Shown here: positions 1 to 17,142 of the stretch, piece after piece
Position numbering within the stretch: position 1 is the stretch's first letter
How the letters are laid out: each line of letters begins with the position of its first letter
Assembly: GCA_022646745.1 (NCBI GenBank)
Contig: CP060262.1
Span: forward strand, 30,001-62,000
DNA: 32,000 nt
Reading direction: 5' to 3'
DNA from: Planctomycetales bacterium
Lineage (GTDB): Bacteria > 4484-113 > JAFGCY01
The notes under the pieces: generated by a model
What the model saw: the letters and a program-made list of their open reading frames with translations, nothing else
Told to the model about the DNA's origin: nothing
The model's database searches: none
Position numbers and translations under genes: made by a program

Positions 1-1289
1 AGGAAGTCCTCTTCTTGCACGGACACATTGCAGATCCCTTGCAGGGCCTGGTCGAAATGCTGCTGGTACTTTAATTTCCCGGTGATGTCCCACATTACCA
101 ATGTATCCGATCTTTCTGAGCCTGGGTTTTCCATGGCGATGGCTGCCAGCATTCTTTCTCCTGCGTAGTCGAACTCACACATCCGGGAATTCCTGGTCCG
201 TGGAAAATCCATCGACAGCCAGCCCTCAGGCAATTGCCTTGCCGTTTCACTTCCCGTAGAAACATTGATAATCGCACGGTAAGTAACCACTTCAGCAATT
301 CCATCTTGCGCGAAGTCCACGGCATAAAACACCGAGCCACTGGAAGGTGAAGGTGAGACACCGTCGATCCAGGTCACATCCTGATCCATCCCATAAGCAC
401 GATACTGCCAGTTTCCCAGCTTCATGGCTTCCTTGTCTGAACTTGCAAGGAATTCCGCCCTGCCATCATTGTCTAGATCCATGAAGCAGTCCACTAGGTT
501 GCCGCGCACATCCTCCGTATAGAACAGCTCGACTCCGTTTAGTCCATAGATATGCACAGGGGCGGAATACCTATGTCCGAACTGCTCGCCCAGCAGCAGG
601 TCCACGAAGCCGTCGCCATCCCAGTCCGCTCTGTATTGTGGGAATCCGTTGTCCTGTCCAGTCAGGGTGCACATTAACTCACCCTTTGTCGTCAGCACCT
701 GCATTTCGTTTGTATGCCCCCAGTCATTGCCGGGGTCCGGAATGCTGCACAAGAGCTCCATCACGCCATCGCCGTCACAATCCCATGCAAGGTCCGGTGC
801 TGAAATGAATCCATCCAGCGGAAGCTCCCTGACTTCTCCTCCGGGAACTTGCAGTATCTGCATGCCTCCACTGTGGATGCTAAGCAGTTCCCATCCTGAA
901 TCATCGTCAAAGTTGCCAGCCAACACCGCACTGTCATCCTTCCTGCCATCAGGGTAAGCAAGGAGTCTCCTCCACTCAAGTGCGTTGCCAACGGTAGTTC
1001 CGGTTTCATGCCTGTCATTAACATTCTGTAGCTCAATCAATTTGCCGACTATGATGCTGAAAACCTCGTCCTCTGATTTTCCAACGGTAGACTCCTTGAA
1101 GTACAGCTCATCAAAGCCAGCCCTTTCCAGCAATGCTTTGTCCACCTCTGATTGACAGGCCCAGGCTTTTTCAAATGCAGAGCTGGATCCTTTTGCTTCT
1201 GCATCCTTCGAGGAGTTTTCCAGGCAGGAAATCAAGCCTCCCAAAACAAGGAGCAAGCCAAGCATTAACTTCAAGCCTCTGGCGAGCAT
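1..1289 (-). CDS. FG-GAP/VCBS-like beta-propeller lipoprotein, paralog A (3' end runs off the window)
   Basis: It is absent from the ORF track because there is no stop in the window. My own minus-strand translation from ATG 1289 gives MLARGLKLMLGLLLVLGGLISC (lipobox LISC). It then shows GNFDDDSGWELL, WDCDGDGVMELL, ADWDGDGFVDLL, MDLDNDGRAEFL and the family C-terminal motif SDTLVMWDITGKLKYQQHF. I saw no in-frame stop down to position 1. Confidence 0.75.
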   Translation of the reverse strand, partial: MLARGLKLMLGLLLVLGGLISCLENSSKDAEAKGSSSAFEKAWACQSEVDKALLERAGFDELYFKESTVGKSEDEVFSIIVGKLIELQNVNDRHETGTTVGNALEWRRLLAYPDGRKDDSAVLAGNFDDDSGWELLSIHSGGMQILQVPGGEVRELPLDGFISAPDLAWDCDGDGVMELLCSIPDPGNDWGHTNEMQVLTTKGELMCTLTGQDNGFPQYRADWDGDGFVDLLLGEQFGHRYSAPVHIYGLNGVELFYTEDVRGNLVDCFMDLDNDGRAEFLASSDKEAMKLGNWQYRAYGMDQDVTWIDGVSPSPSSGSVFYAVDFAQDGIAEVVTYRAIINVSTGSETARQLPEGWLSMDFPRTRNSRMCEFDYAGERMLAAIAMENPGSERSDTLVMWDITGKLKYQQHFDQALQGICNVSVQEEDF

Positions 1290-1312
1290 GCCTTGTGATT
1301 GACTGAGTTCCA

Positions 1313-2752
1313 TCACTCCCCCTCCACCCCCAGCAGCAGTTCCTGGGCCGTCAGCACAGCTACTCGCCGGCCGTCGGCGTCCAGCTCGAAGTCGTCAATG
1401 TCCACCCCGAAGCGTGTGTCAAACACAACCTTGCCTGTGCTGTCCCAGCCCACCAGTGCATCCCGTTCGAGGATGCCGACACGCTGCGGCCGCCCGAGCA
1501 CCATGCGCTGCCCGCCGAAACTGGCAATCCGCAGCTCCGGGGTCCGCAGCGGCTGGATCAGCCAGTCATCCCAGCCCTCCGGCGTATCAAGCCTGAGCGG
1601 CTCGCGTCCGACGCGCGCCAGCACCTTCTCGCAGAGCAGCTCGTCAATCCCGTCGCCATCAACGTCCACCGCGCAGGCCGGTGAATCCAGGCCCTCGATG
1701 CAGGGGATCGCCTCAAACAGCAGGAAGCCGTCCACCATCCTGAGCAGGCTCACTCCGTGCGGCTCCTCTGAGGCACGCATCACGATCCCCTCGCCTCCGC
1801 TGTCATCCAGCCGCGCACTGAAGGCGAAGCTGGTGATGCCGATCACGCCCATTTCCCGGACGACCGCGCCATCCTCATAGAGGTACAGCTTCGAATCAGC
1901 GCCCCTGTCATCCCAGCAGACCAGCTCCCGCTCGCCGTCGCCATCGAGGTCGGCCATGCAGTAGTTTCCATCTGCGATCTGGGGCGGCGCATCCTCCACC
2001 TGGGCTCCATCCATGTCCCGCAGGTTGTAGATGAAGTCGCCGGAATTACCGCTCCTTTCCATCTGCTTCCAGTCCAGCACCCGGAACTCCGGCTGACCGT
2101 CGGAGTTGTAGTCCAGCAACTCATAGGCTTCCAGTCCGGCCAGCCCGGGCAGCTCCCCGCTCCCGCCGCCGAACCCGTACCAATGCAGCTTGCCGGCCCC
2201 CATCGTCTCGTCGGCATTGGTATCCTGGTAGGTGAACTCCGGCCTGCCGTCGCCATCCATGTCGAATCGGTGCAGGCGGCCGCCCATCCACCAGCGTGAC
2301 GGCCGTTCATTCGCCAGCAGCAGTTGCCAGTCCAGCGTTGATCCCTCTTTTACCATGGGCGGTCTTTCCGCGAATGGCTTTGTCGCCAGCACCGCAGTAT
2401 GCATCGTCCGCTTCGCATGGCCGTAGTAACTCTCGGCATATCTGGAGGTCCACCACTCGAGGCCCTGCCCACGCGCCTCCAGCGCCTTGCGTTCCTCCTG
2501 CTTGAGGCGCAGCCACAGCTCGGTGATGTTGATGCGGTCGGCGGGGTCATGCTCTGCCGGGTCCGGGTCGAGGTTCTCCGGCGAGTCCGGCTCTGCCTTA
2601 GTGGCAAATGGCTCATTTTCGGCACTCTTCGTTGCATTGCCCTGTGTCCCGGACGAATCAGGCTGCTGGTCGCATGCCGCCAGCAGGCAGAGGATTGCCA
2701 ATGGAGCCAGCATGGCAATGCTCCACTTCGTAATCAGCCCCCTGCGGTTCAC
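1313..2752 (-). CDS. FG-GAP/VCBS-like beta-propeller lipoprotein, paralog B
   Basis: ORF track gives 479 aa. The GTG start overlaps the upstream stop (GTGA). The signal is MNRRGLITKWSIAMLAPLAILCLLAAC (lipobox LLAAC), followed by the helix ELWLRLKQEERKALE. Ca-loop-like repeats are FDMDGDGRPEF, LDYNSDGQPEF, ADLDGDGEREL and VDVDGDGIDELL. Confidence 0.85.
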   Translation of the reverse strand: MNRRGLITKWSIAMLAPLAILCLLAACDQQPDSSGTQGNATKSAENEPFATKAEPDSPENLDPDPAEHDPADRINITELWLRLKQEERKALEARGQGLEWWTSRYAESYYGHAKRTMHTAVLATKPFAERPPMVKEGSTLDWQLLLANERPSRWWMGGRLHRFDMDGDGRPEFTYQDTNADETMGAGKLHWYGFGGGSGELPGLAGLEAYELLDYNSDGQPEFRVLDWKQMERSGNSGDFIYNLRDMDGAQVEDAPPQIADGNYCMADLDGDGERELVCWDDRGADSKLYLYEDGAVVREMGVIGITSFAFSARLDDSGGEGIVMRASEEPHGVSLLRMVDGFLLFEAIPCIEGLDSPACAVDVDGDGIDELLCEKVLARVGREPLRLDTPEGWDDWLIQPLRTPELRIASFGGQRMVLGRPQRVGILERDALVGWDSTGKVVFDTRFGVDIDDFELDADGRRVAVLTAQELLLGVEGE

Positions 2753-4170
2753 TGCCCGTCCCTCACATCCGCCAGCACCATGATCGCATTGGCGGTACGC
2801 ATAACCAGCCTGTCCTGCTGTCCATCCCAGACGGCGTACAGCCTGTCAATCTCGGATTCGGAATATTCGTGGTAGATAAGCTTCCCTGCGCTGTCCCAGA
2901 TCAGCAGGGTGTCACTGCGCTTGCCCTCCGGCTTCTGATAGACCGCCGCCGCGAAGCAGTTGCCCTGTGGCAGGTGCAGCGGGATGGCAACACATGGGAA
3001 AGCCCCGTATTGAATTGCCGCCCAGCCTACCGGCAGCTGCAGCTCCACGGCACTGCCGCTCGCCGGGCTGACAATCTGCCGCTCCGTCAGCAGCTCCGCT
3101 ACCCCGTCGCCATCGAGGTCGGCCGCACAGACCGGCATGTCCTGCGGCACGCCGTCACCCAGTCCCGGCACAGGCAGCTGCTCCTGGTCGAGGCCATATG
3201 CCCGCAGCGCGGAGGCCTTTGTGACCGGGCCGCCGGAGGTGCCCTGTGAGATCGCCTCTGCACGGCCGTCGCCATCGATGTCCGCCAGCGACCAGATGAT
3301 CGCCGGCATGATCCCCTCGGTGGACCAGGTTTCCGCTCCACCGTGTGCCAGGGCGATGATGCGGCTGCTGGACAGGTCATCCACCAGCAGCTCCAGCAAG
3401 CCATCTCCGTCCATGTCGCCAAGGTACTGCGTCGCCATCGGCAGGCGGCCATTGATCGTATCCAGCAGCTCACCGGATATGCCCACGATTTCCAGCCCGT
3501 TGCCACTGCCGCCGCTGCGCGCCCCACCCTCCGGGGCATAAGCCGTGCAGACCAGCTCGTCAATCCCATCACTGTCCCAGTCCCAGGCTATCGAACTGCG
3601 GATCGCATCCCAGCCGAGGATCGGCAGCTCAGTCATGCTGCCGTCGAGCTCCAGCAGCTGGCAGGCGTACTGCTCGCAGTGCAGCATCTCCTGCGTTTCG
3701 TCCCCGTCAAAGTTGCCAACCACCAGCGTGGCGTAGTCCTCATACTCACCGTTGAATGTGTCGAGGAACTTCCAGTAATACTGCGGCATGTCTATCGGAC
3801 GGCCCGGTTCGTGCCAGTCCTGCCCACGCAGGTACTGCGCCCGGCTGGCCAGCATTTCCGCAAACCCATCCACTGGCTTGCCATCAAATTGGATGCCAAG
3901 GCGCTCCAGGCCCATCCCGTCGCGCTCCAGCAGCCGGTGGTCCTCATCTGTGAGCGATTGCCAGACTGACTCTATTGCAGCCGCGTCCAGGCTTTCACCG
4001 GACTCAGCCGCACAGGGTTGGACAGCGGATTCATCAGGAACTGCTTCCTGTTGTACCTGCGGAGTGGCAACATCTGACCCATCGCCAACTGTCCCGGCCT
4101 GCTCCTGCTTCGGGCAAGCGTTGCACAAGAGCAACACTGCCAGCAGCAACACCGTTGCCAGCAGCCTCAC
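2749..4170 (-). CDS. FG-GAP/VCBS-like beta-propeller protein, paralog C (signal peptide, atypical lipobox)
   Basis: ORF track gives 473 aa. The GTG start sits in a GTGA overlap with the paralog D stop. The signal is MRLLATVLLLAVLLLCNAC, followed by VWQSLTDEDHRLLE. Repeats are GNFDGDETQEML, WDWDSDGIDELV, GDMDGDGLLELL, ADIDGDGRAEAI and ADLDGDGVAELL. The C-terminus carries SDTLLIWDSAGKLIYHEY. Confidence 0.85.
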   Translation of the reverse strand: MRLLATVLLLAVLLLCNACPKQEQAGTVGDGSDVATPQVQQEAVPDESAVQPCAAESGESLDAAAIESVWQSLTDEDHRLLERDGMGLERLGIQFDGKPVDGFAEMLASRAQYLRGQDWHEPGRPIDMPQYYWKFLDTFNGEYEDYATLVVGNFDGDETQEMLHCEQYACQLLELDGSMTELPILGWDAIRSSIAWDWDSDGIDELVCTAYAPEGGARSGGSGNGLEIVGISGELLDTINGRLPMATQYLGDMDGDGLLELLVDDLSSSRIIALAHGGAETWSTEGIMPAIIWSLADIDGDGRAEAISQGTSGGPVTKASALRAYGLDQEQLPVPGLGDGVPQDMPVCAADLDGDGVAELLTERQIVSPASGSAVELQLPVGWAAIQYGAFPCVAIPLHLPQGNCFAAAVYQKPEGKRSDTLLIWDSAGKLIYHEYSESEIDRLYAVWDGQQDRLVMRTANAIMVLADVRDGQ

Positions 4171-5576
4171 TGGGAGACCTTCAGCCTGTCATTTGTCTGC
4201 AGCATGAGCTTCTGCCCATCCGCGCCATTGATCACCTTCAGGTCCTGCAGCTCCTCACCGAGGTATTCCAGGTAGACCAGCTCGCCGGCGCCGTTCCACA
4301 TCGCCACTGTGTCCGAGCGGTACTCCTCGCGGCCCTCGATCAGGCGTGCCACCAGCAGCTTGCGCCCGTCCAGCTCGATCACGCCAAGCCCCATGCCCAT
4401 CCCCCAGGAGAGCTGCATGTCATCCCAGCTCTCCGGTTTGGCAAGCCGCGTCTTCTCGCCAGTCTGCGGGTTCAGCAGCGACGAGCCGGTCAGGATCTCC
4501 GCAAAGCCGTCCCCGTTGAGGTCGGCACACAGTGAAGGCGGGCCGGCCAGCGAGTTGTCCGACAGCCCGGGCACTTCCACCGGCTCCTGCCCCATCCCGC
4601 AGGCCATCACGCGTCCGCCGTAGGGTACGTTAGGGTCGTACAGCGGGGCCAGCAGCTCATCCTTGCCATCGTTGTCAATGTCTCCGCTGGCCATCTCCAT
4701 CAGGCTGATCGCCTCCTTCGGCTGCCAGACCAGCTTGCCCTTGCGCCCATAGGCCAGGACTTCAGGGACGTACTGCGGCCCGTAGTTCATCAGGATCAGC
4801 TCAGTATGCCCGTCGCCATTGACGTCCGTGCCGGAAGCGTTGCCCATGTCAATGTTGCCATCCAGTTCCGCGATCCGCTCGCCGCTCGTGCTGAGCACCA
4901 GTGTCTTGTACTCCTCCGCGCCGCTTTCGTCCTGCGTGAAGTTGTTCCAGTCCGTGGCGAGGAACTCGCCTATGCCGTCCCCGTCGTAGTCCCAGATCGC
5001 GGTTGCCATCAGCTGCTGGTTCGGGTCGAGCTTCAGCTCCTGCTCGCTGCCATCGAGCTGCACCAGCCACTGCACATCCTGCGACACCAGCAGCTCATCC
5101 TCGGGGTCAGAATCGAGGTTGCCGGCGAGCACCATCGAGTACAGGCCGTCCACGCTCTCGAAGTTGACCACGTCCTTCCAGGCCAGCGCCTTGCCGACCG
5201 GCACACCCTTGTCATGCAGCTCCATCGGGCGCAGCATCTGCAGCTGCGACTCCAGCATCATCTCGATCGAGGCGATGTCCATCGAGCCGACCATTCCGTC
5301 GGCGAAGCCCTTGTCCATGCCGGACTCCTCCAGCAGCTGGCGGTCCTCGGCGCTGAGCTTCTGCCACATCGCGTCCACTTCCTGCTGCGTGGCCGGAGTG
5401 CCCATCCCCGGCGCGGCGGCCGGTTGCTGGTTCTGGGCCTGGTTCTGGTTGTTGCTGAAGCCGTTGCTCAGCCCCTTGCCCGCCTGGTCCAGCAGGTCGC
5501 AGGATCCAAGCAGGCCAATGGCCAGTACCGCGAGCGTGGCAATTGCCAGCCTGCCGATCACCTTGAGCGCCGGCAT
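4167..5576 (-). CDS. FG-GAP/VCBS-like beta-propeller lipoprotein, paralog D
   Basis: The ORF track extends to 5828, but the first 84 codons contain no signal peptide. ATG 5576 gives MPALKVIGRLAIATLAVLAIGLLGSC (lipobox). ATG 5648 is an alternative start. The protein shows MWQKLSAEDRQLLE, GNLDSDPEDELL, WDYDGDGIGEFL, TDVNGDGHTELI, GDIDNDGKDELL, ADLNGDGFAEIL and the C-terminal SDTVAMWNGAGELVYLEY. Confidence 0.8.
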   Translation of the reverse strand: MPALKVIGRLAIATLAVLAIGLLGSCDLLDQAGKGLSNGFSNNQNQAQNQQPAAAPGMGTPATQQEVDAMWQKLSAEDRQLLEESGMDKGFADGMVGSMDIASIEMMLESQLQMLRPMELHDKGVPVGKALAWKDVVNFESVDGLYSMVLAGNLDSDPEDELLVSQDVQWLVQLDGSEQELKLDPNQQLMATAIWDYDGDGIGEFLATDWNNFTQDESGAEEYKTLVLSTSGERIAELDGNIDMGNASGTDVNGDGHTELILMNYGPQYVPEVLAYGRKGKLVWQPKEAISLMEMASGDIDNDGKDELLAPLYDPNVPYGGRVMACGMGQEPVEVPGLSDNSLAGPPSLCADLNGDGFAEILTGSSLLNPQTGEKTRLAKPESWDDMQLSWGMGMGLGVIELDGRKLLVARLIEGREEYRSDTVAMWNGAGELVYLEYLGEELQDLKVINGADGQKLMLQTNDRLKVSQ

Positions 5577-5668
5577 GCCGGCCAGTCTTGCATCAGTCTT
5601 CAAGTCCCTGCCTCCCGTACCGCCCGCTATGCCCGGCGGCTGATCCATTCTAACCAATGGCGCAGATA

Positions 5669-7306
5669 TCAGGGCGAGATGAGCAGGCGCGACTGGGTCA
5701 GCACGGCGAGACGCTGGCGGCCGCCATCCCTGACCACCGCGATTGAATGGAGCTTCTCCCCAAAGCGCTCGCAATACAGAAGCCTGCCCTGCATGTCCCA
5801 TATCCCGAGTGAGTCCGACCACATGCATCGCTCATCCACCATTGCCACCAGCACCGGCCGACCCCCGAAGTTCCATGCCACTACCTTGCCTCCGAACAGG
5901 TTGTCAAGCACCATGTACCTGGCGTCCGGAATCAGCTCCAGTGGAACGCCCTCGCCACCATCCAGTTCACGGATGCTGTTGTCAATCAGCAGTTCATCGC
6001 GCCCATCGGCATCGAAATCCGCCAGCACGGGCCGATTGTTGTCGCTTAGCCATGCGTCGTTTTCAACGGGCAGTTTGACGGGCTGCCATTTCCCCAGCTC
6101 CAACACTTGCAGGTAGCTGTATTGTTGATCGTCTGCTTCTGGGTTCGTGCGGCAGATCAGCTCATCCGTACCATCGGCGTCAATGTCACTGACCCACTGG
6201 AAACCATTGCCGGGGCTGTCCCCGCTGTCCAGCAACTCACCGGCGGTGGACCAAATCCAGTACATGTAATGCAGCGGGTCGCTCAGTTGCAGCGAAGTAT
6301 TTGCTGTCCCCACAAGGTCCTGCACACCATCGCCGTTGAAATCACCGCTCTGGAAGAAAATGGCATGCATCTCCACGCATGGAATATCAGTACTGCTGCC
6401 ATCCAGCTCATACACCGCAAGCAGCGAACGTCCGGCACGCTCCTCCTCGCTCAGTCCGTGGATCAACCTGGCAACAAGCTCAAGCTGGCCATCCCCGTCG
6501 AAGTCATATGATGTACCCTGCAGGGAAAACAACCTTTGCGCACTTTCCGCCCAATCGAGTTTCCTGTTCGATCCATTCAGTCTGACAAGTGTGAGCTGCT
6601 GGAATCCATCATTCAGCAGCAGTTCGTCCTGGCGCGGTTCACCCTCAAAGTTTCCACTATCAACTGTCTTGCCGAAGTCATCCGATGACTTCATTTCATA
6701 CAGCGTTTTCCATGTGATGGCGCTGCCCCGGGTCACTGCCGCTGGCCGGACCAGCAGTTCCCGCTGGTCGCGCACCTTGCCCTCGATCTCACGGTAGATC
6801 AGTTCGTAGTCGTCAGAGTGCTCCTGCACCAGCTCGGATATGTAATCAACCACAGTGCGCGGGCTGTCAGCCCTGCGGTTCAGCTCCCGGGCGTAATTGA
6901 CAAGATCCTCAGATGAGAAGTCCGAAGTCAGCTGCTCCATCAGTTCCGGGTATTGTTGCCACAGCAGGTCCGCCTGGAATTCCATTGCCGCCTGCCTGCG
7001 CTCTTTCGCAGCTTCCTCCGGCCCGCCATTCATATACCACTGCTCCGTGGCACCCACTCCCAGATTCAGGCCGCTTCGCAGCTTCTCAGTGGCTATTGCC
7101 AGGCGCTGTGGCAGTTCCTCTGCCGTAAAGCGATGTGTCCGTTGCGCTGGGATTCCATCCCCATCCGGGCGGTCCCCGGTGTCTTCAGCAGTGGAACTGG
7201 TGTTGAGACGCTGGAGCATGAACATAGCAAGCAGCCCGACTGCCGCCGCAATCAGCAGCAGCTCAAGCCAGATCCGCCAGCGATTCTTTCCCGTCCCCAC
7301 GGCCAT
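5669..7306 (-). CDS. FG-GAP/VCBS-like beta-propeller protein, paralog E (N-terminal membrane anchor, longer helical N-domain)
   Basis: ORF track gives 545 aa with an ATG start. The TM anchor is WRIWLELLLIAAAVGLLAMFML. Repeats are GNFEGEPRQDELL, YDFDGDGQLELV, GDFNGDGVQDLV, SDIDADGTDELI and ADFDADGRDELL. The C-terminus carries SDSLGIWDMQGRLLYCERF. Confidence 0.85.
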   Translation of the reverse strand: MAVGTGKNRWRIWLELLLIAAAVGLLAMFMLQRLNTSSTAEDTGDRPDGDGIPAQRTHRFTAEELPQRLAIATEKLRSGLNLGVGATEQWYMNGGPEEAAKERRQAAMEFQADLLWQQYPELMEQLTSDFSSEDLVNYARELNRRADSPRTVVDYISELVQEHSDDYELIYREIEGKVRDQRELLVRPAAVTRGSAITWKTLYEMKSSDDFGKTVDSGNFEGEPRQDELLLNDGFQQLTLVRLNGSNRKLDWAESAQRLFSLQGTSYDFDGDGQLELVARLIHGLSEEERAGRSLLAVYELDGSSTDIPCVEMHAIFFQSGDFNGDGVQDLVGTANTSLQLSDPLHYMYWIWSTAGELLDSGDSPGNGFQWVSDIDADGTDELICRTNPEADDQQYSYLQVLELGKWQPVKLPVENDAWLSDNNRPVLADFDADGRDELLIDNSIRELDGGEGVPLELIPDARYMVLDNLFGGKVVAWNFGGRPVLVAMVDERCMWSDSLGIWDMQGRLLYCERFGEKLHSIAVVRDGGRQRLAVLTQSRLLISP

Positions 7307-7340
7307 ATATGTATCCTAGCGCAGTGCCCGGCCAGGCTGC

Positions 7341-8546
7341 TCAGTCCACCACGGGCAATTCCGCCCTGCGCAGCTGCCCATCCACCCCCTGCAGGATGAG
7401 CACGGGTTGACTGCCATCGCTGACAACAAACAGGTGTCGCATCGGCTGCTTAAAGGTCCTGCGATAGACAATCCTGCCCTGCGCGTCCCAGATGAGCACG
7501 GTATCCTTTTCCATGTCCGAGACCGACTCGCCGACCAGTGCTGCCAGCGCAAACTGCCCGTCAATTTCCAGTTCACTGTACTCACTGCCGATATCAAACA
7601 CTATGAACTGCGCGGTCCAGTCCGCTGGACGCTCCAGCTCCATCACCGGCCCTGCAAGTGACAGCACCTTCAACTGGTTCGTCAGGATCTCAGCCTTGCC
7701 ATCCCCGTCCATGTCCGCGCAGTAGACCGCGTTGCCCCAGTGCTCCGCATCCTGCAGCTCAGCTATCTGCACAGGATCCTGCTCCATTCCGAAAACCCTT
7801 GAGTTGGGAGCATTGGACGCCAGGGCCTGGCGCGAAATGCCGAGCACTTCCTCGCGACCATCGCCATCCACATCCCCGACCGCCGGTACCGAGATTGAAT
7901 GCAGGTCAGGCTCATTCCAGAGCGAATTGCCGCTGCCGTCAATTGCATTCACCGTGTTGCCAACTCCCTCTGCATCCGGGATCGCCACCAGCAATTCCCG
8001 GCTGCCATTTCCGTCTATATCAACCAGGTTGCGGCTGAGCAGGGGTTTGCCTTCGAATTCCATGATTGCATGTCCCGAGAGGTCCACTACAGACATTTCT
8101 GACAGCAGCCTGCCGCTTGCGGCATTTCTGATGAGTTCGTACCTGACAACGACGTACTCACTCACGCCATCTCCATCACTATCCCACAGGCAGTCGACGG
8201 CCTTGTTGTCATATCCGATCAGGTTGGAATTCACGTACACTCCATCCAGGTCGTAGATCCGGTAATGGTCCCACAACAGCAGCAACTCGTCTGCCGAATC
8301 AGAATCAAGGTTGCCCGGCAGGAATGTTACGAGGTCCAGCATGGGAGGTCCGGCGTCGATAGCCACCCCCATTTCCTGCCAGGCGAGTTTCTCCAGCCTG
8401 CCCGTCAGATTGCCAGCTGACTTTCCACCGGTGTTGCGTTCCGTGCTGTCCCCGCTGCCCCTGTTGCATGAAACGAGCAGCACGAGCAACAATGCTGTAA
8501 TCACGCTGAAGTTTCCTGTCCAGCACATTTGCAGAGAACCGTCCAT
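7341..8546 (-). CDS. FG-GAP/VCBS-like beta-propeller lipoprotein, paralog F (first gene of the tandem run)
   Basis: ORF track gives 401 aa. The signal is MDGSLQMCWTGNFSVITALLLVLLVSC (lipobox LVSC); ATG 8528 is an alternative start. Repeats are GNLDSDSADELL, WDSDGDGVSEYV, VDIDGNGSRELL, GDVDGDGREEVL and ADMDGDGKAEIL. The C-terminus carries KDTVLIWDAQGRIVYRRTF. Confidence 0.85.
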   Translation of the reverse strand: MDGSLQMCWTGNFSVITALLLVLLVSCNRGSGDSTERNTGGKSAGNLTGRLEKLAWQEMGVAIDAGPPMLDLVTFLPGNLDSDSADELLLLWDHYRIYDLDGVYVNSNLIGYDNKAVDCLWDSDGDGVSEYVVVRYELIRNAASGRLLSEMSVVDLSGHAIMEFEGKPLLSRNLVDIDGNGSRELLVAIPDAEGVGNTVNAIDGSGNSLWNEPDLHSISVPAVGDVDGDGREEVLGISRQALASNAPNSRVFGMEQDPVQIAELQDAEHWGNAVYCADMDGDGKAEILTNQLKVLSLAGPVMELERPADWTAQFIVFDIGSEYSELEIDGQFALAALVGESVSDMEKDTVLIWDAQGRIVYRRTFKQPMRHLFVVSDGSQPVLILQGVDGQLRRAELPVVD

Positions 8547-8575
8547 TCAGCAATGTTAGACTGCGGTTGAATCAA

Positions 8576-8670
8576 AGTCACCTGGTCAATGAAACATTGA
8601 GTCAACTGTCACTGCGGCGGCTAGTCAATATTGACTCCGTGACTCCTTGACTTCCTGACTCTTTGACTCT
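8576..8670. repeat. Inverted array of 8-bp word repeats: GTCA(A/C) units then (TGACTNNN)x5, around the palindrome AGTCAATATTGACT
   Basis: TGACT occurs at 8632, 8640, 8648, 8656 and 8664, an exact 8-bp period. GTCA occurs at 8577, 8585, 8601, 8608 and 8624. A perfect 14-bp palindrome spans 8623-8636. Confidence 0.85.
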
Positions 8671-9025
8671 CCCCACTCCAACCTCCAACGTGCAACCTGC
8701 CCCTGCAACCTGTTTAAACCATTTCTCCGCGCGGCATAATATGAATGACTGCGTTACAATACGCAGCCGAGGAAAGCGAGATGTACACACTGAAGTACAC
8801 ATCTGGATTCCGAAACCCGCCGGTGCCGGCCGGCACCACTGCGCGCGCCTGAGCACGCCGCGGACACTTCCGCATCCCCGCCAGACGCGCCCCCTGACCT
8901 CCCCTGCCCCTGCGTGCAGCCCCGGTCAGTGCTCCCCCGCCAGCCAGGCACCTTTCCCGCCGATACATATAAGGTAAAATCCTGCATTCGCGGGATCCGC
9001 ACTGATATTAGGAAATCCGACTGAC

Positions 9026-10558
9026 ATGAGTGAGACACAGACAATGAGTGAGGCAGCACCCCACGTACGCATCCGCGCCATCGGCCCCGGGCATCTCGGG
9101 CAGCGCGTGCAGATCCGCGGCTGGCTGGCCAACAAGCCCGGCGGCAAGGGCCGTTACTTCCTCTGGCTGCGCGACGGCAGCGGCATCATCCAGGCCGTCG
9201 CCGAGCAGGAGAAGTCCAGCCCCGAGGACTGGGAGGCCGTGGAGAGCATCGGGCTCGAAAGCAGCATCATCGTGGAGGGCATCGTCAAGGCGCACCCCAG
9301 GAACGAAGGTGAGTTCGAGCTGGACTTCGCCGGCATCAAGGTGCTGCAGGCCGTCAGCGACTACCCGATCACCAAGAAGGAGCATGGCACCGAGTTCCTG
9401 ATGAAGCACCGCCACCTCTGGCTGCGCGGCCGCCGCCAGAGCGCGATCCTGCGCATCCGTGCGGAGGTGCACAAGGCCTGGGCGGACTTCTTCTACGATC
9501 GCGGCTTCTTCCGGGTGGACACCCCGATCTTCACGCCCAACGCCTGCGAGGGCACCACGACGCTGTTCGAGGTGGACTACCACGGCGACACCGTCTACCT
9601 CTCGCAGTCCGGCCAGCTCTACAACGAGGCGGACATCGGCGCGCTCGGGCAGGTCTACTGCTTCGGGCCGACCTTCCGTGCGGAGAAGAGCAAGACCCGC
9701 CGCCACCTGCTGGAATTCTGGATGCTGGAGATGGAGGCCGCGTTCTACGACTTCGATGACAACATCCGCTTCCAGGAGGAGATGATCGCGTTCACGGTCA
9801 GCCGCATCCTCGAGCGTTGCAGTGCCGAGCTGAAGGAGCTCGGGCGCGACCCGGAGAAGCTGCGCCCGGCCACGCAGACGCCCTATCCGCGCCTGCGCTA
9901 CGGCGATGCGATCGAGCTGATCAACAAATCGCGGGTGGCGATCCTGATGGAACAGCGCGGCCTGTCCGAGGAGAAGGCGCTGGAACTGCTGTACAGCGGC
10001 AAGGCGACCTTCAGCGACGACACCTATGATGACGACGCGGAGAAGACCCGCAAGCTTGAGCCATTCCGCTGGGGCGACGACTTCGGCGCGCCGGACGAGG
10101 CCGCGATCAGTGCGCAGTACGACCGCCCGGTGTTCGTTTCCAACTTCCCGACGGAGATCAAGGGCTTCTACTTCAAGCAGGATGAGGAAGCGGACGGCAG
10201 CCTGCGTGTGGACCCGGTGTTTGCCGCGCTGCCAGACGACATGAAGCTGCCCGGCATGAGCGGGCATACCGTGCAGGGTGCGGACTGCATCGGGCCGGAG
10301 GGCGCAGGCGAGATGATCGGCGGCAGCCAGCGCGAGGACAACTTCGAGCGCCTGATGGAGAACATCGAGCACCACCAGCTGCCGCTGGACTTCTTCCAGT
10401 GGTACCTCGACACACGGCGTTATGGCAACGTGCCTCACAGCGGCTTCGGCATCGGCATGGAGCGCTTCGTGGCCTGGGTGGCGGGCGGCAGCGACACCCC
10501 GGTGCACATCCGCGAGGTGATCACATTCCCGCGCATGCTGCACCAGTTCGAGCCCTAG
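9026..10558 (+). CDS. asnS: Asparagine--tRNA ligase (class IIb), with two insertions
   Basis: ORF track gives 510 aa. AsnRS-type motif 2 is GPTFRAEKSKTRRHLLEFWMLEMEAAF. Also present are GEMIGGSQRE, RRYGNVPHSGFGIGMERFVAWV and IREVITFPR. Confidence 0.93.
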   Translation: MSETQTMSEAAPHVRIRAIGPGHLGQRVQIRGWLANKPGGKGRYFLWLRDGSGIIQAVAEQEKSSPEDWEAVESIGLESSIIVEGIVKAHPRNEGEFELDFAGIKVLQAVSDYPITKKEHGTEFLMKHRHLWLRGRRQSAILRIRAEVHKAWADFFYDRGFFRVDTPIFTPNACEGTTTLFEVDYHGDTVYLSQSGQLYNEADIGALGQVYCFGPTFRAEKSKTRRHLLEFWMLEMEAAFYDFDDNIRFQEEMIAFTVSRILERCSAELKELGRDPEKLRPATQTPYPRLRYGDAIELINKSRVAILMEQRGLSEEKALELLYSGKATFSDDTYDDDAEKTRKLEPFRWGDDFGAPDEAAISAQYDRPVFVSNFPTEIKGFYFKQDEEADGSLRVDPVFAALPDDMKLPGMSGHTVQGADCIGPEGAGEMIGGSQREDNFERLMENIEHHQLPLDFFQWYLDTRRYGNVPHSGFGIGMERFVAWVAGGSDTPVHIREVITFPRMLHQFEP

Positions 10559-10700
10559 GAGGTCTGGCGCAAGCCAGGCTTGGAGGTCGGACGCAAGCTC
10601 GGCTTGGAGGTCAGGCCCATGGCCTGACAGGAGGCCAAGCTGTAAGCTTGGCTTGGAGGTCAGGCCCATGGCCTGACAGGCGGCCAGTGCCATGCACTGG
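10559..10700. repeat. Cluster of REP-like GC hairpins prefixed by (TT)GGAGGTC
   Basis: The cluster begins directly after the asnS TAG. Hairpins are CTGGC-GCAA-GCCAG (10564-10577), GTCAGGCC-CAT-GGCCTGAC twice (10610-10628 and 10659-10677), GCCAAGCT-GTA-AGCTTGGC (10634-10652) and CCAGTGC-CAT-GCACTGG (10684-10700). Confidence 0.85.
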
Positions 10701-10722
10701 CACACATGAACTGACAACTGAA

Positions 10723-10757
10723 ATGGCGGCCGGGCACATGCCCGGTTGCCATTTATT
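10723..10757 (+). terminator. Candidate intrinsic terminator downstream of asnS
   Basis: A stem of about 13 bp is formed by ATGGCGGCCGGGC-ACAT-GCCCGGTTGCCAT, including two G-U pairs. It is followed by TTATT. Confidence 0.5.
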
Positions 10758-10760
10758 CCT

Positions 10761-10832
10761 CTCACTCCCCTACTTCTTCCACTTCCCCTACTTCCTCCAC
10801 TTCCCCTACTGCTTCCACTTCCCCCACTATTA
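10761..10832. repeat. 18-bp tandem repeat, about 4 copies (CCACTTCCCCTACTNCNT)
   Basis: The copies are ctcactcccctacttctt, ccacttcccctacttcct, ccacttcccctactgctt and ccacttcccccactatta. Confidence 0.85.
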
Positions 10833-10849
10833 AAACCATTCCCACTGTT

Positions 10850-10897
10850 GCCAGACTATCGTCTGGCCTCCCCGCCCGGCTTGTGCCGGACCTCCTA
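10850..10897 (-). repeat. REP-like unit in reverse orientation abutting the stop of paralog G
   Basis: The minus strand reads GTG TAG GAGGTCCGGCACAAGCCGGGC. A hairpin GCCAGAC-nnnn-GTCTGGC follows at 10850-10867. Confidence 0.8.
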
Positions 10898-12451
10898 CAC
10901 TCCTGCCAGCAGCCTCGTATCCGTCACCACATACAGCCGCCTGCCATCCTCCCCCGTGAGGATGTCATTCACCTGTTCACCGAAATGCTCCATGTACACC
11001 AGCTTGCCGCTGCTGTCCCACAGCCCGAGCGTATCCGAGCGGTTGTCATCGTAATCCTGCACCAGCAGGGCTGCCAGCAGGCGCTCCCCGTCGCGCTGCC
11101 AGAGCACGACCTGCGGGCGCGGCTGCCGGTGTGCCGTGGGCAGCATGTAGCCCTCCGGGAACTCCAGCTCCACCGTATCGCTGTTCCAGCTCAGGTAGAC
11201 ATGCCCGGAACTGACCAGGTCCACCCGGCCGTCGCCATTGATGTCAACGAGTGCCAGGATCGGGTCAACGTCGCGCTGCCCGCTGGCGGACAGCACATCC
11301 TGGTCCTCCTGATCGATGCCGACGAACAGCTGGTCAAAGGCATTGGTCTTCGTCTCCGATGGCCGCTTGATCAGCAGCTCATCCCTGCCGTCGCCATCCA
11401 CATCCCCCACCATGATGTCATCCATGTTGGAACACTGCGTATTGAAGATCTCGCCACCGGCCTGCTCTATTGCATAGAGCGTCTTTTCCATCAGGAATGC
11501 CGTGTTATTCCGGTCCGCTGTCTGGTTGAGCTTGTAGCACAGCAGCTCCGGTAGTCCATCGCCATCCATGTCCAGCTCCGGCAGGCGCATGCTCCAGGCA
11601 GTTCCCGGAGTATGGGCAAGAATCTCCCCATCCAGCCCGCGCAGCACTCCGCTGTCTCCCGTATATAAACGCCCACCTTCCTTTGCATTGGCGGGATCAT
11701 AATCCAGCAGTTCATCCACGCCATCACCATCGTAATCAAATGCTTCAAGCAACGCCACCAGATCAAGGCCGGGTGTCTGCAAAATGCTGCCGTCCTGATT
11801 TCGGAATTCAATTCCGCGGTACTGAATTGCCACTTCCTCCTCTGGGTCATCATCAAAGTTTCCGGGGAAGACAACGTATCGCCGGTAACCTGGTCCGGAC
11901 TGCTGTTTCTCATGCTCCTCTACTACCTGCCACTCCACCGCATCTCCACGATCCACATTCGCTTCTCCGGCCACCAGCGGCTTGTTGCGATTTAAAGCCT
12001 GCTGCATCGCATCAGCAACATATGCCTTGTCAAACAGTTGGCCCTGTGTACGGCGCTGAAGAATCCACTGCTCGCGTGTCAGGCCATTTTGCTTGGTGAT
12101 CTGCTTTCGCATCTTCTCATCCAGCTTCTCCCAGGCTCCCTCCGGGTCTGAGTATTCGCTGTAGCGATCCCATTCCCTCTTGCCATTCAGGTTCCTGGTC
12201 AGCAGCTCCCGGTCCTCCTCACTCAGCGCATTCCACAGCTCGTCAATCTCAGCCTGGGTGACCGGATGGCTACCGGCTTTGGCTGTCGCCATCCCTTCTC
12301 CGGCGATCACCGGCGCCCCACTTTCACTGACGCCTACCACCACCGGATCATCATCAGCCTGCTGGCAGGCAGCACACAGCAGGCAGGCCTGCATTGCCAG
12401 TGCCAGCATGGCCGCCAGCGCCAGCCGATCCAATCTCCCCGGATGTCCCAT
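10895..12451 (-). CDS. FG-GAP/VCBS-like beta-propeller protein, paralog G (separated from A-F by asnS)
   Basis: The ORF track starts at GTG 12502. ATG 12451 lies 9 nt downstream of a GGAGG and gives MGHPGRLDRLALAAMLALAMQACLLCAAC. The protein shows ELWNALSEEDRELL, GNFDDDPEEEV, FDYDGDGVDELL, LDMDGDGLPELL, GDVDGDGRDELL, VDINGDGRVDLV and the C-terminal SDTLGLWDSSGKLVYMEHF. Confidence 0.8.
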   Translation of the reverse strand: MGHPGRLDRLALAAMLALAMQACLLCAACQQADDDPVVVGVSESGAPVIAGEGMATAKAGSHPVTQAEIDELWNALSEEDRELLTRNLNGKREWDRYSEYSDPEGAWEKLDEKMRKQITKQNGLTREQWILQRRTQGQLFDKAYVADAMQQALNRNKPLVAGEANVDRGDAVEWQVVEEHEKQQSGPGYRRYVVFPGNFDDDPEEEVAIQYRGIEFRNQDGSILQTPGLDLVALLEAFDYDGDGVDELLDYDPANAKEGGRLYTGDSGVLRGLDGEILAHTPGTAWSMRLPELDMDGDGLPELLCYKLNQTADRNNTAFLMEKTLYAIEQAGGEIFNTQCSNMDDIMVGDVDGDGRDELLIKRPSETKTNAFDQLFVGIDQEDQDVLSASGQRDVDPILALVDINGDGRVDLVSSGHVYLSWNSDTVELEFPEGYMLPTAHRQPRPQVVLWQRDGERLLAALLVQDYDDNRSDTLGLWDSSGKLVYMEHFGEQVNDILTGEDGRRLYVVTDTRLLAGV

Positions 12452-12514
12452 TTGCCGCAGCCTCCGGCTTGCATATTTACTACACATCGTAGTATATACC
12501 ACAAATTGATGAGG

Positions 12515-12703
12515 AATGATGAATGAGCAATGAAGAGTGACTAATGAACAATGCCGGAGCTGCGTTGCGAAAACACGCCGCAGGCGTGATGCAGCTGCGC
12601 AGGACGGGAAACTGACATGCCAGTCGTGGCATAGCCTGCGAAGCTGCGCTTCGCGGCTCCGACCTCAACCTATTCTCATTGCTCACTTTTCATTGCTCAT
12701 TGC
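12515..12703. repeat. Inverted arrays of 7-bp units (AATGANN x6 ... NNTCATT x5) flanking a ~125-bp hairpin-rich segment
   Basis: IRL 12522-12548 (aatgagcaatgaagagtgactaatgaa) matches the reverse complement of IRR 12675-12701 (aatgagcaatgaaaagtgagcaatgag) at 23 of 27 positions. Internal perfect hairpins are ATGCCA-GTCG-TGGCAT and GCGAAGC-TGC-GCTTCGC. Confidence 0.85.
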
Positions 12704-12837
12704 TGCCCAGCGACTGGAAGTCGCCGCTACTGACTCCCCCCTCCTCCCCACTCCAACCCTCTTTCCGTTACTATCTTCCCGTGGATGGCTTATTCGGGAC
12801 AGGTGGGGACGCCGGCAACCGCAATGACGAATTCCGC

Positions 12838-13617
12838 ATGAGGCTCAGTGCCTTGTCCGCCGGCTTCGAGCGGGACGCCCTGTCCGGCCTGCGCGGTCCC
12901 GGGCAACCGGCGCAGTTCGTCTGGCTGGCACTGCTGGTGGCATTCATCAACGGACTCGTCTACCTCAACCTGTTCCCGGCCTATGGCCTGTACCTCTTAT
13001 TCACACCGCTGCTCTACTTCTGGTGGCTGGTGGAACTGATGCAACGCCCCCTCACCAGCCGCTTCCACTATGCCCGCCGCCACATGACGAACCAGCTGAT
13101 GTCAACGGAGCTGATGCTGCGCAGCATTGACGAACCCTACAGCCTGGCGCTGCGGGATGCCGCGCTGGAGGCCGGCCTGCCGAAGTGGATGCTGCCGCCG
13201 CAGCCGCAGGATGCCGAAGGCCTGCTGTCGCATGCCGGGGTGCTGGCACCGCTGCTGCTGGACTTCGACCGGCTCGGCCGTGGTGATCGTACAGTCGAGC
13301 TGCGCCGCGCATGGTGGAAGGTGTTCTGCGCCAGCCGCGCCGGCAGTTCCCTGTGCTGGCTGTTACTGGTGCTGGTTCCGCTCGGGGGCGGGATCCTGGC
13401 TTTCCCGGTGATGCAGCTCGTGCTGCACTGCCGCAGCCAGCGGGTTGACAGCCTGGCCCGCCAGGCCGCCCTGTGCGAGTTCCTCAGCAATGCCAACCAG
13501 GACTGGGCGCTGTTGATCCGCCAGCTCGGGCAACTCAGTGAGCAGGCTACTTCATCTCGATCACGGTCAGCGAAAACTCGCCACCCTGCTTCAGCATCTC
13601 CTGCATCGCAGGACTGA
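12838..13617 (+). CDS. Hypothetical integral membrane protein
   Basis: The ORF track begins at 12679, inside the repeat region. ATG 12838 starts a stretch of high third-position GC. Hydrophobic segments are FVWLALLVAFINGLVYLNLFPAYGLYLLFTPLLYFWWLV and LCWLLLVLVPLGGGILAFPVMQLVL. I recognise no family. Third-position GC collapses in the last ~70 nt, where it overlaps the convergent gene. Confidence 0.6.
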   Translation: MRLSALSAGFERDALSGLRGPGQPAQFVWLALLVAFINGLVYLNLFPAYGLYLLFTPLLYFWWLVELMQRPLTSRFHYARRHMTNQLMSTELMLRSIDEPYSLALRDAALEAGLPKWMLPPQPQDAEGLLSHAGVLAPLLLDFDRLGRGDRTVELRRAWWKVFCASRAGSSLCWLLLVLVPLGGGILAFPVMQLVLHCRSQRVDSLARQAALCEFLSNANQDWALLIRQLGQLSEQATSSRSRSAKTRHPASASPASQD

Positions 13618-14020
13618 GCGAGGCATCATCCATGCCGAGCGTTGCAATGCTGACCGAGATATCCGCACCATCCTTTTCGTAGAAGCGTCCGCTGGACATC
13701 AGCTGCTCCTCCTCCTTGCTGGAGAACTGCCCGCCGAAGGCGCTGTACTGCGTCTCGCGGTAGCCGAGCGCGCCTAGCTGCCTGTCAAAGTGCGCCACCA
13801 CACTGTCCCAGCCGTCCGGGTTGTTGAAGCGGATTGTCAGTGTTGACATCGAGCTGTACTGGTCGCCGGGCTGGCCGCTGAGCTGTGTCTCATCACGCTG
13901 TTCCGAGGTCTGCTGCGAGCCCTTCGGCAGGCTGAGTCCAGCCAGTCCGTACTTGCCACCGCCACCGCAGGCAGCCAGCAGCACAAGCATTGCCAGGATC
14001 ACGAAGCGCAGGCCTGCCAT
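13547..14020 (-). CDS. Small lipoprotein (last gene of the P-family operon)
   Basis: The ORF track extends to 14119. ATG 14020 gives MAGLRFVILAMLVLLAACGGGG (canonical lipobox LLAAC). This start overlaps the upstream stop by 1 nt (TGATG), and a GGAGG lies about 12 nt upstream. Confidence 0.75.
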   Translation of the reverse strand: MAGLRFVILAMLVLLAACGGGGKYGLAGLSLPKGSQQTSEQRDETQLSGQPGDQYSSMSTLTIRFNNPDGWDSVVAHFDRQLGALGYRETQYSAFGGQFSSKEEEQLMSSGRFYEKDGADISVSIATLGMDDASLSPAMQEMLKQGGEFSLTVIEMK

Positions 14021-14778
14021 CAGGGTTCCGGCCTCCAGTCCTGTCCCGGCCAGCGCACCAGCACTTCCCGCTCGCCATCCAGCAGCGGGATCATTGCCCC
14101 GAGGCTGCGCGGCTGCCACATCAGCACGCTGTTGCCATAACTGTCCCGCAGGCGCTCACTGGCAAAGATGAACAGTGCGCCGTCCGGGCTGCCGCCGCCA
14201 TCCAGGTCATGGCCGCTGTCCTGATCCGGCCCCCAGGCCACCAGCATGAAGCCATCGGTTTCGCCATCGCCGTTGCGCTGGGTCAGGTAGCTGAAGTTGC
14301 CAACCGCCTGCGCAGTCCATCCGAAGGGCACAACCTCCGCATCGAAATCTTTCCCTGATGTCGCCGTGTAGGGATTGGCATAGAAATGCGGCTCCTTCAG
14401 TGAAGCCCATTCACTCGCATAGCCCGGTCCGGCCTCCATTGGAAGGCTGGACGGATAGCGGGCATGCCGCGGGTCCGCCTGCTCCGCAGGAATCTCATAC
14501 CAGACGCAGCCATCCCAGCGCATCACCCCGTCCTGGTTGACAAGCTCCAGCGCGAGCAGCAATGTATCAGCATAGAGCTGCCACTTCTGGTCATTCGCCA
14601 GGCTGTCCGATGCCGTTTCGCCACGCTCGCGCTTCTCCCAGGAATTGGCCAGGAAGTCCCGCACCTCAGCCTCCAGCCACATGCCGTAGCTGCACAGCAG
14701 GTTGCCCGCCATGAGCAGCGGTATTGCCAGCAGGCTCAGTCCGAATGTTCGATAACTGTACTTATTGTCTTTCATCAT
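14020..14778 (-). CDS. P-family paralog 1: secreted/anchored protein with pseudopilin-like or FG-GAP-like C-terminal module
   Basis: ORF track gives 252 aa. The N-terminal hydrophobic segment is TFGLSLLAIPLLMAGNLL. The conserved block is HFYANPYT..VVPFGWTAQAVGNFSYLTQ..GFMLVAWGPDQDSGHDLDGGGSPDG. Confidence 0.8.
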   Translation of the reverse strand: MMKDNKYSYRTFGLSLLAIPLLMAGNLLCSYGMWLEAEVRDFLANSWEKRERGETASDSLANDQKWQLYADTLLLALELVNQDGVMRWDGCVWYEIPAEQADPRHARYPSSLPMEAGPGYASEWASLKEPHFYANPYTATSGKDFDAEVVPFGWTAQAVGNFSYLTQRNGDGETDGFMLVAWGPDQDSGHDLDGGGSPDGALFIFASERLRDSYGNSVLMWQPRSLGAMIPLLDGEREVLVRWPGQDWRPEP

Positions 14779-16255: not shown

Positions 16256-16295
16256 CTGTCCGTTCTCCTTATCACCATCACTATCCACACGCCAG

Positions 16296-16985: not shown

Positions 16986-17142
16986 TTGCCATCCCTCCCG
17001 TTGTGACTGTGCACGATATTGAAATGTATAACACAGCCTGCGCCTCCGGGCCCGCCCTTCATGTCAGCATGCTAATGTTAAACCCCAATGAAACCGGTGG
17101 AGCTGGGGCCGTCTTATCCCGCCGGTGCAGGAGAAGCCTGGC

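Follow-up and report, generated by a model that had tools for sequence, protein, structure and literature searches.

An array of seven divergent FG-GAP/VCBS propeller paralogs with a conserved pair and strain-variable membership in an uncultured UBP7/Planctomycetota-like lineage

Organization of the propeller gene array

We analyzed an array of seven predicted propeller genes at one end of a 32,000-nucleotide (nt) stretch of contig CP060262.1 (positions 30,001 to 62,000, hereafter the window). NCBI labels the organism 'Planctomycetales bacterium', related metagenome-assembled genomes (MAGs) carry the depositor label 'UBP7', and we kept the taxon as uncultured and UBP7/Planctomycetota-like. The window was 100% identical to contigs of saline activated-sludge metagenomes.

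The listing of open reading frames (ORFs) and their translations placed seven minus-strand paralogs, named A to G, in window positions 1–12502, with the plus-strand asparagine-tRNA ligase gene asnS lying between G and the run from F to A (Table 1). An earlier reading of the sequence alone (the original prediction) had proposed exactly this, a seven-member FG-GAP-type array split by asnS, and the coordinates, the Pfam scores and the BLASTP comparisons all agreed with it. The identity of asnS was given by NCBIfam model NF003037 (471.7 bits against a cut-off of 414). The seven paralogs could be aligned across their full length, and their pairwise BLASTP identities of 22–33%, with E-values from 1e-4 to 1e-43, placed their similarity far beyond chance. 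All seven are complete ORFs, each with its own start and predicted export signal, and the gene next after A, just outside the window start, encodes a secreted S8 peptidase.

Within the run the genes are tightly packed. Stop and start codons overlap by 1 nt between A and B and by 4 nt (GTGA) between B and C and between C and D, and the remaining gaps measure 34 nt (E/F) and 20–92 nt (D/E, according to the start chosen for D). These overlaps suggest that F to A may be co-transcribed, with F probably the first gene of the run, and D and C are probably translationally coupled. Long ORFs also run antisense to the propeller genes and to asnS (two examples in Table 1); they are artefacts of high GC content and not genes.

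Table 1. Coordinates of the propeller array and of other features in the window (aa, amino acids; pS, proportion of synonymous differences; dS, synonymous divergence)
Feature	Position	Strand	Size or extent	Remarks
A	1..1313	-	437 of 451 aa inside the window	Last 14 codons past the window start; P0012; LISC lipobox; Ca loops: three strict, one degenerate
B	1313..2752	-	479 aa	LAAC lipobox; most divergent member
C	2749..4170	-	473 aa	Core orthogroup, in 5/5 genomes, directly after D
D	4167..5576/5603/5648	-	469-493 aa	Start ambiguous; LGSC lipobox; core orthogroup
D-E intergenic site	5649..5668			Place of an extra ~1.5-kb paralog X (497-504 aa) in HKST-UBA01
E	5669..7306	-	545 aa	Cys-less transmembrane anchor; enlarged helical N-domain; NCBI H7A35_00160
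E variable block 1	6512..6709	-	Residues 200-265, first blade	47% aa identity; pS 0.77 (saturated)
E variable block 2	5858..6307	-	Residues 334-483	63% aa identity to HKST-UBA01; dS about 1.0
F	7341..8546	-	387-401 aa	LVSC lipobox; without N-terminal helical domain
asnS	9026..10558	+	510 aa	Asparagine-tRNA ligase, not a family member
G	10895..12451/12502	-	518-535 aa	Start probably at 12451; CAAC lipobox-like site; extended helical N-domain
G variable block	11438..12205	-	Residues 100-355	Rest of the helical domain and blades 1-3
asnS insertion	~9850-10090	+	Residues ~275-355	Lineage-specific
F-asnS repeat	8631-8669			TTGACTCC x4.9; divergent F-asnS promoter region
asnS-G spacer repeats	10558-10665, 10756-10828			24-nt unit x4.5; CT-rich 18-nt unit x3.5; convergent spacer
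Membrane protein gene	12679-13617	+	312 aa	Multi-pass; no family match
Lipoprotein gene	13547-14119	-	190 aa	Predicted (LLAAC-GGGGK); no family match; ortholog L001 2427-2888
Second paralog array	14020-14778, 14762-15493, 15557-16288, 16296-16985	-	~230-250 aa each	Four secreted proteins
Glu/Gln-rich protein gene	17125-18114	+	329 aa	No Pfam match
Antisense ORF	4806-6116	+	436 aa	Artefact
Antisense ORF	9008-10765	-	585 aa	Artefact; faces asnS

Domain architecture and predicted fold

All seven proteins scored at or above the Pfam gathering score for FG-GAP_3 (PF13517; 31.7–50.4 bits, cut-off 26.9), for FG-GAP (PF01839; up to 47.7 bits, cut-off 22.1) or for both. Lipobox-like cysteines, assigned with the regular expression [LVI][ASTVI][GAS]C alone, were found in six of the seven and were canonical-like in A, B, D and F; E has no cysteine, and its N-terminal segment looks like a transmembrane anchor. 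The original prediction had given each member a signal peptide or lipobox, a helix of the form W..L..ED..LLE, a first blade of GNFDGD type, four to five calcium-loop repeats and a terminal SDTL..WD..GKL strand, and these elements fared unequally. Apart from E, the lipobox part stood as far as the cysteine goes, with sites in C and G that are atypical. A clear helix is seen in five members (A, B, C, D and G); E has a divergent version and F has none. The first blade is indeed recognizable as GNFD[DG]D in the family, yet its loop is degenerate and only B has a canonical loop there. After this blade each protein carries three to four strict D-x-[DN]-x-D-G-x-x-[DE] loops, so that the earlier count was too high. 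The columns of these Ca loops are the most conserved of the family, in which the invariant positions are the D and G residues of the loops together with one W.

The SDTLxxWDxxGKL motif was present in 7/7 proteins, 47–55 residues ahead of the C-terminus. Its position could be judged in an AlphaFold2 model, which was built for D only, on a 34-sequence family alignment (mean predicted local distance difference test, pLDDT, 85.7; predicted TM-score, pTM, 0.82). In order, the model comprises an N-terminal hydrophobic helix, a disordered segment (residues 34–51), a four-helix domain (residues 64–115, pLDDT about 97) and, after residue 124, about 28–30 β-strands, whose DSSP string is consistent with a predicted propeller of about seven four-stranded blades. 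The segment SDTVAMW-NGAG-ELVYLEY of D is modeled as strand-turn-strand and is followed by three further strands; the motif is therefore an internal hairpin in the two motif-less C-terminal blades and not the last strand as first supposed. The Ca-loop/FG-GAP-like motif is limited to the first five blades, and the last ~90 residues (two predicted blades) are without it.

Relationship to known families and occurrence

Searches for a described family returned the superfamily and nothing closer. An NCBIfam scan of the seven proteins found nothing above noise, none of the seven matched the PADLOC anti-phage defence models (0/7), and no PQQ or BamB family appeared in the Pfam and NCBIfam scans. The top Foldseek matches of the D model, namely BBS1/2/7, ITFG2 (KICSTOR), integrin alpha, Bap1 and UmbA4, are binding scaffolds or lectins, and a Foldseek search against viral structures gave generic propellers and nothing else. 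In profile-versus-PDB searches the best matches were Bap1 (6mlt, 5.6e-16) and 9oee (2.3e-13), both at the level of repeats over stretches of about 100 residues. Because the NCBIfam and PADLOC scans were null and the PDB and Foldseek matches were generic propellers, no curated family was assigned: the seven proteins belong to the FG-GAP/VCBS propeller superfamily, outside any curated or characterised family. The expectation that no described system would fit has accordingly held.

The same profile searches also matched the PL11 lyases YesW, YesX and 4cag (E about 1e-8 to 1e-9), besides CRTAC1 and integrins, which raises the possibility that the array encodes propeller-based enzymes, PL11-type polysaccharide lyases or esterases, with the paralogs covering different polymers. 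The 9oee chain is a 'secreted esterase' (E 2e-13), and Pfam gave weak hints of RGL11_C (12.9 bits, cut-off 27) and of the lambda-carrageenase propeller (Beta-prop_CGLA, at most 19.4 bits, cut-off 26.8). These scores nevertheless lie below the Pfam cut-offs, the matches span only repeat stretches of 80–140 residues (about 80 for YesW and YesX), and the proteins showed no conserved candidate catalytic residues besides the Ca loops. PL11 propellers are, moreover, 8-bladed and about 600 aa long. We therefore regard an enzymatic array as highly improbable.

The family itself is small. An exhaustive profile search of 1.84 billion representatives recovered 293 proteins with E-values of 1e-30 or lower. 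Of the 150 best, about 30 were full-length single-stretch matches of 380–545 aa with the family-specific C-terminal blades, and the remainder were giant multi-repeat FG-GAP proteins. Word-indexed searches found 3–4 close relatives, named 'VCBS repeat-containing' or 'hypothetical'. Two distant members (P0134 and P0083) lie on 2–3-kb contigs and look single-copy. A metagenome scan with the D-clade alignment, which used generic FG-GAP patterns, yielded only unrelated large FG-GAP proteins when checked with a family hidden Markov model. Tandem FG-GAP paralogs are not confined to this array; two adjoining FG-GAP genes of ~820 aa in locus L018 are one example.

Conservation and copy number in related genomes

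Five genomes were compared: the window strain, HKST-UBA01 (L003/L007), a JGI contig (L002), AC1.30 (L001/L008) and HKST-UBA03 (L009). The four relatives share the order G, asnS on the opposite strand, tandem array, Peptidase_S8, zf-CDGSH and transaldolase, except that G is deleted in HKST-UBA03, and asnS keeps its position next to the array in 5/5 genomes. Counted as G side plus array, the copies number 1+6 in the window strain, 1+6 with different content in HKST-UBA01, 1+4 in the JGI contig, where HicAB is inserted, 1+3 in AC1.30 and 0+5 in HKST-UBA03. The paralogs are thus co-conserved in relatives, and the array size, for which variation had been suggested as a check, ranges from 4 to 7 copies.

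A neighbor-joining tree resolved deep orthogroups. D and C are found in 5/5 genomes and are always neighbors; G has orthologs in 3/4 relatives (4/5 genomes), B and E occur in some genomes, and A, F and X are lineage-specific. Since the orthogroups are deep and D and C are kept in all five genomes, the paralogs are ancient and retained and not recent duplicates.

The constancy of D and C bears on a second explanation, in which the paralogs would together build a single hetero-oligomeric complex in the envelope, with D-C as its obligatory core and translational coupling setting the stoichiometry. In every genome D and C adjoin with overlapping stop and start codons, the ancient paralogs are under purifying selection (see below), and the confidently modeled helical N-domain (pLDDT about 97) could be an interaction module. 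The best Foldseek matches, furthermore, are subunits of multi-propeller complexes (BBSome and KICSTOR), and in the BBSome the paralogous propellers BBS1/2/7/9 assemble into a scaffold. However, this likeness is at fold level only, F is without the helical domain, the copy number varies from 4 to 7, and genomes that are 92–95% identical differ in whether they have A, X, F, G and other members, which is unexpected for obligate subunits. Such a complex is unlikely, although it is the likeliest of the alternatives.

In 5/5 genomes a gene for Peptidase_S8 is found 90–320 nt downstream of the array on the same strand; its product has 617–626 aa and carries a hydrophobic signal or anchor at the N-terminus. 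The array may on this ground be tied to the subtilase, the propellers being substrates, maturation partners or substrate-recruiting adaptors of a protease system that is secreted or anchored. However, CDGSH, transaldolase and CrcB are likewise syntenic around the array, and because the whole neighborhood is conserved, synteny is weak evidence for such a tie. In one genome HicAB is inserted between the array and the S8 gene, and no fused FG-GAP/S8 architecture or known system was found. The peptidase itself resembled mycosins only weakly (61 bits, cut-off 279) and gave a weak generic subtilase match in PADLOC. A functional link to the peptidase seems very doubtful to us.

Strain variation, recombination and selection

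The window was compared with HKST-UBA01 against a baseline of about 95% nt identity, given by the S8, CDGSH and transaldolase genes together with B, C, D and F. HKST-UBA01 lacks gene A and has an additional paralog, X, inserted precisely in the gap from the E stop to the D start. Beyond these differences in gene content, sharply bounded divergent blocks were found in G and E (Table 1). The G block shares 48% aa and ~54% nt identity with HKST-UBA01 at a saturated pS of 0.76, and its flanks are 96% identical with dS of 0.13–0.21; block 2 of E is likewise flanked by blocks that are 97–100% identical. The same pattern of variation was repeated in a second genome pair, AC1.30 and HKST-UBA03: at a baseline of 91–96%, the pair differs by the deletion of G and by two additional paralogs, and identity is 80% for the E-like gene, 92.5% for D and C and 74–88% for asnS.

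Chimeric assembly was considered as a cause of the mosaic and rejected. Several independent assemblies contain exact (100% identical) copies of the window alleles of A-D, of E-F and of G, and the HKST-UBA01 sequence is identical across three assemblies (A-F in 3/3, G in 2/3); since both allele sets recur independently, the mosaic is not an assembly artefact.

Recombination tracts, then, do exist between strains, where they are allelic, but none was found between paralogs. In BLAST comparisons with all paralogs, the variable blocks matched only the orthologous gene (46–58%); against other paralogs, long alignments gave about 30% identity and short ones of ~50 residues no more than about 46%. 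The divergent G block is no closer to its strain counterpart (46.6% identity) than to the distant AC1.30 ortholog (48.4%). Comparison of the paralogs within the window gave no near-identical tracts, the longest shared segments being 37–52 nt at 60–80% identity and corresponding to the Ca-loop motif, so that recent gene conversion inside the array is unsupported. Because dS in the variable blocks is saturated, these blocks are old imports and not products of fast point evolution. To judge from these sequence comparisons, the divergent blocks are old alleles swapped by homologous recombination, and not the result of paralog-to-paralog conversion.

These results also bear on the idea, raised in the original prediction, of a gene-conversion or antigenic-variation reservoir in which neighbors donate segments to an expressed copy. 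The sharp boundaries of the divergent blocks in G and E would fit such a mechanism. However, the paralogs are just 22–33% identical and have no near-identical tracts, the variable blocks match the orthologous gene only, every copy is complete, and the orthologs are under purifying selection, with dN/dS (nonsynonymous over synonymous divergence) of 0.13–0.37 between the window and HKST-UBA01. The reservoir is largely refuted, and we give it almost no credence.

The exchange of alleles among strains can also be read in a bolder way, as a population-level diversity locus of a cell-surface recognition system with a fixed D-C core receptor, whose peripheral propellers (G, E, A, X and others) would be swapped whole or blade by blade among co-existing strains under negative frequency-dependent selection. 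The selecting agents would be phage, predator, prey or kin recognition, and, if true, the array would represent a new integrin-like class of variable surface receptors. We consider this quite unlikely.

Proposed function and evidence on the loop faces

Alignment entropy was placed on the strand order of the D model. Conservation was highest in the A-B (Ca) and C-D loops (1.1–2.4 bits; 37–47% identity between paralogs). Variability peaked in the B-C and D-A loops, where the indels are also located (3.2–3.4 bits; 13–15% identity between paralogs, 26–39% within orthogroups). Ligands of integrin-type propellers usually bind to the face formed by the B-C and D-A loops, and the loop pattern in the array proteins fits a diversification of the binding face. 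The opposite A-B loops are those that carry the Ca2+ DxDxDG motif in integrin-type propellers (PMC8023676).

Taken together with the synteny and the mosaic alleles, these features lead us to lean, tentatively, towards envelope-tethered, Ca2+-stabilised propeller binding modules that combine a stable D-C core with a recombining, strain-variable periphery. Each protein would carry an N-terminal lipid anchor (in E, a transmembrane helix), then a disordered tether rich in Q, N, P and E, a compact helical domain and a propeller of ~7 blades. Blades 1–5 would present DxDxDG loops of Ca2+ type on one face, and blades 6–7 would be family-specific. The paralogs would most likely act as non-redundant receptors or adhesins that recognise glycans or proteins at the cell envelope, with specificity set by the variable face of B-C and D-A loops. 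D and C, probably co-translated, would form the stable core, and the periphery of A, B, E, F, G and X would be gained, lost and segmentally exchanged between strains via homologous recombination.

Several observations weigh against this proposal. In the Foldseek search against the PDB, the D model retrieved only generic 7-bladed propellers of the FG-GAP class, with TM values of 0.4–0.57. The lipobox-like sites of C (CNAC) and G (CAAC) are atypical. Relaxed constraint on the loops alone would give a similar variability of the B-C and D-A face. Positive selection was evaluated as a candidate and rejected, as gene-wide and block-wise Nei-Gojobori dN/dS values were all <0.5. In addition, unusually high divergence between strains is found in asnS and in the intergenic DNA as well, and the mosaic may therefore reflect a regional recombination hotspot and not selection on the propellers.

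Comparison with known systems and significance

Among described proteins, the propellers of the integrin-alpha type offer one of the closest parallels. They share with the array proteins the FG-GAP/VCBS Pfam matches, the DxDxDG motifs in the A-B loops and the variable opposite face, and the array proteins are predicted to have a similar ~7 blades. In contrast to integrins, the array proteins show the motif in 4–5 of ~7 blades, blades 6–7 are family-specific and contain the SDTL..WD..GKL hairpin, a helical domain, predicted lipid anchor and tether precede the propeller, and the array proteins lack a beta-subunit partner, thigh and calf domains and the remaining parts of integrins. Chouhan et al. 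(2011) described integrin-like propellers of bacteria with one motif site in every blade, in seven repeats (PMC3192720); judged by the Ca-loop/FG-GAP-like motif, no run of seven consecutive motif-bearing repeats of that type (PMC3192720) was found in the array proteins.

Two other extracellular bacterial FG-GAP propellers, Vibrio cholerae Bap1 (6mlt) and the Streptomyces umbrella-toxin lectin UmbA4 (9oee, whose PDB title describes it as bound to a cell-wall polymer, TUA), may serve by analogy as functional precedents for the binding of glycans or matrix. The resemblance is limited, however: the Foldseek TMq of the D model was low for both (6mlt, 0.17; 9oee, 0.31), and both proteins have 600–700 aa with extra domains, are secreted and not lipid-anchored, and are without the helical N-domain and C-terminal blades of the array family. 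BamB, a protein-protein scaffold, has a lipobox ahead of one β-propeller of comparable size, the layout predicted for most array proteins, but its propeller is 8-bladed and PQQ-like, and the array proteins match no PQQ or BamB model.

Families of strain-variable surface lipoproteins and receptors resemble the array, with its tandem paralogs, predicted export signals, whole-gene presence and absence between strains that are ~95% identical, and mosaic alleles; such multigene families include loci under phage- or host-driven diversifying selection. In the array, by contrast, nothing points to phase variation, silent cassettes, invertible promoters or mobile elements, its paralogs are ancient by their divergence (22–33%), and the housekeeping gene asnS inside the locus shares the elevated divergence.

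If our interpretation is true, the array represents an undescribed subfamily of integrin-like propellers in which a lipid anchor, a tether and a helical domain are followed by five blades with Ca loops and two that are specific to the family. The subfamily would be restricted to an uncultured lineage about which little is known, and its locus would be conserved, with a core that stays constant and a periphery that recombines. It would then provide a compact natural experiment on the diversification of a propeller binding face, and strain dynamics in the nine-year series of saline activated sludge, which holds both allele sets, could be followed with this locus as a marker. The array is nonetheless a lineage-specific expansion of a very common repeat fold and nothing categorically new. 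Because FG-GAP/VCBS expansions are common and no long-standing open question is addressed, only the demonstration of a ligand or a complex would raise its wider importance above a modest level.

Neighboring genes and repeats

Compared with the 451-aa NCBIfam model, the asnS gene inside the locus contains a lineage-specific insertion, which varies in both length and sequence between strains that are ~95% identical (510 vs 556 aa). Between the window and HKST-UBA01, asnS shares 73% aa and 78% nt identity (dS 0.44), far below its flanks, and the asnS region as a whole is 71–88% identical; the gene is likewise divergent in the pair of AC1.30 and HKST-UBA03. Tandem repeats occur on both sides of it, in the divergent F-asnS promoter region and in the convergent asnS-G spacer (Table 1). 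These intergenic repeats had no Rfam match, and an Rfam scan of the whole window gave none either.

The syntenic locus gathers small insertions in relatives. In the JGI contig L002 a HicA/HicB toxin-antitoxin pair lies between the array and the S8 gene, and a lone HicB lies upstream of G (946-1113, 11266-11708). In the window strain (L011 8078-8572) a 164-aa ORF follows zf-CDGSH that is absent from HKST-UBA01.

On the far side of G lies a second tandem array of paralogs on the minus strand, which encodes four secreted proteins with 31–37% mutual identity. They share the motifs PGFYPNP and VPFGWTxEAVGNFSY and a single G-x-D-[IV]-[DT]-G-D-G-x-P-DG loop. They have no Pfam or NCBIfam match, their homologs form 8 clusters in 5.8 billion proteins, all of the same clade, and the AlphaFold2 model for this family was poor (pLDDT 50.7). 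AC1.30 has two of the copies in syntenic position upstream of its G ortholog (L001 179-1604). Between the two arrays sit the genes for the 312-aa membrane protein and the 190-aa predicted lipoprotein, both syntenic with the arrays. Beyond the second array, the 329-aa Glu/Gln-rich protein shows by eye an internal duplication, …REHFELEHRLSQL… / …REYFELQHRISKA….

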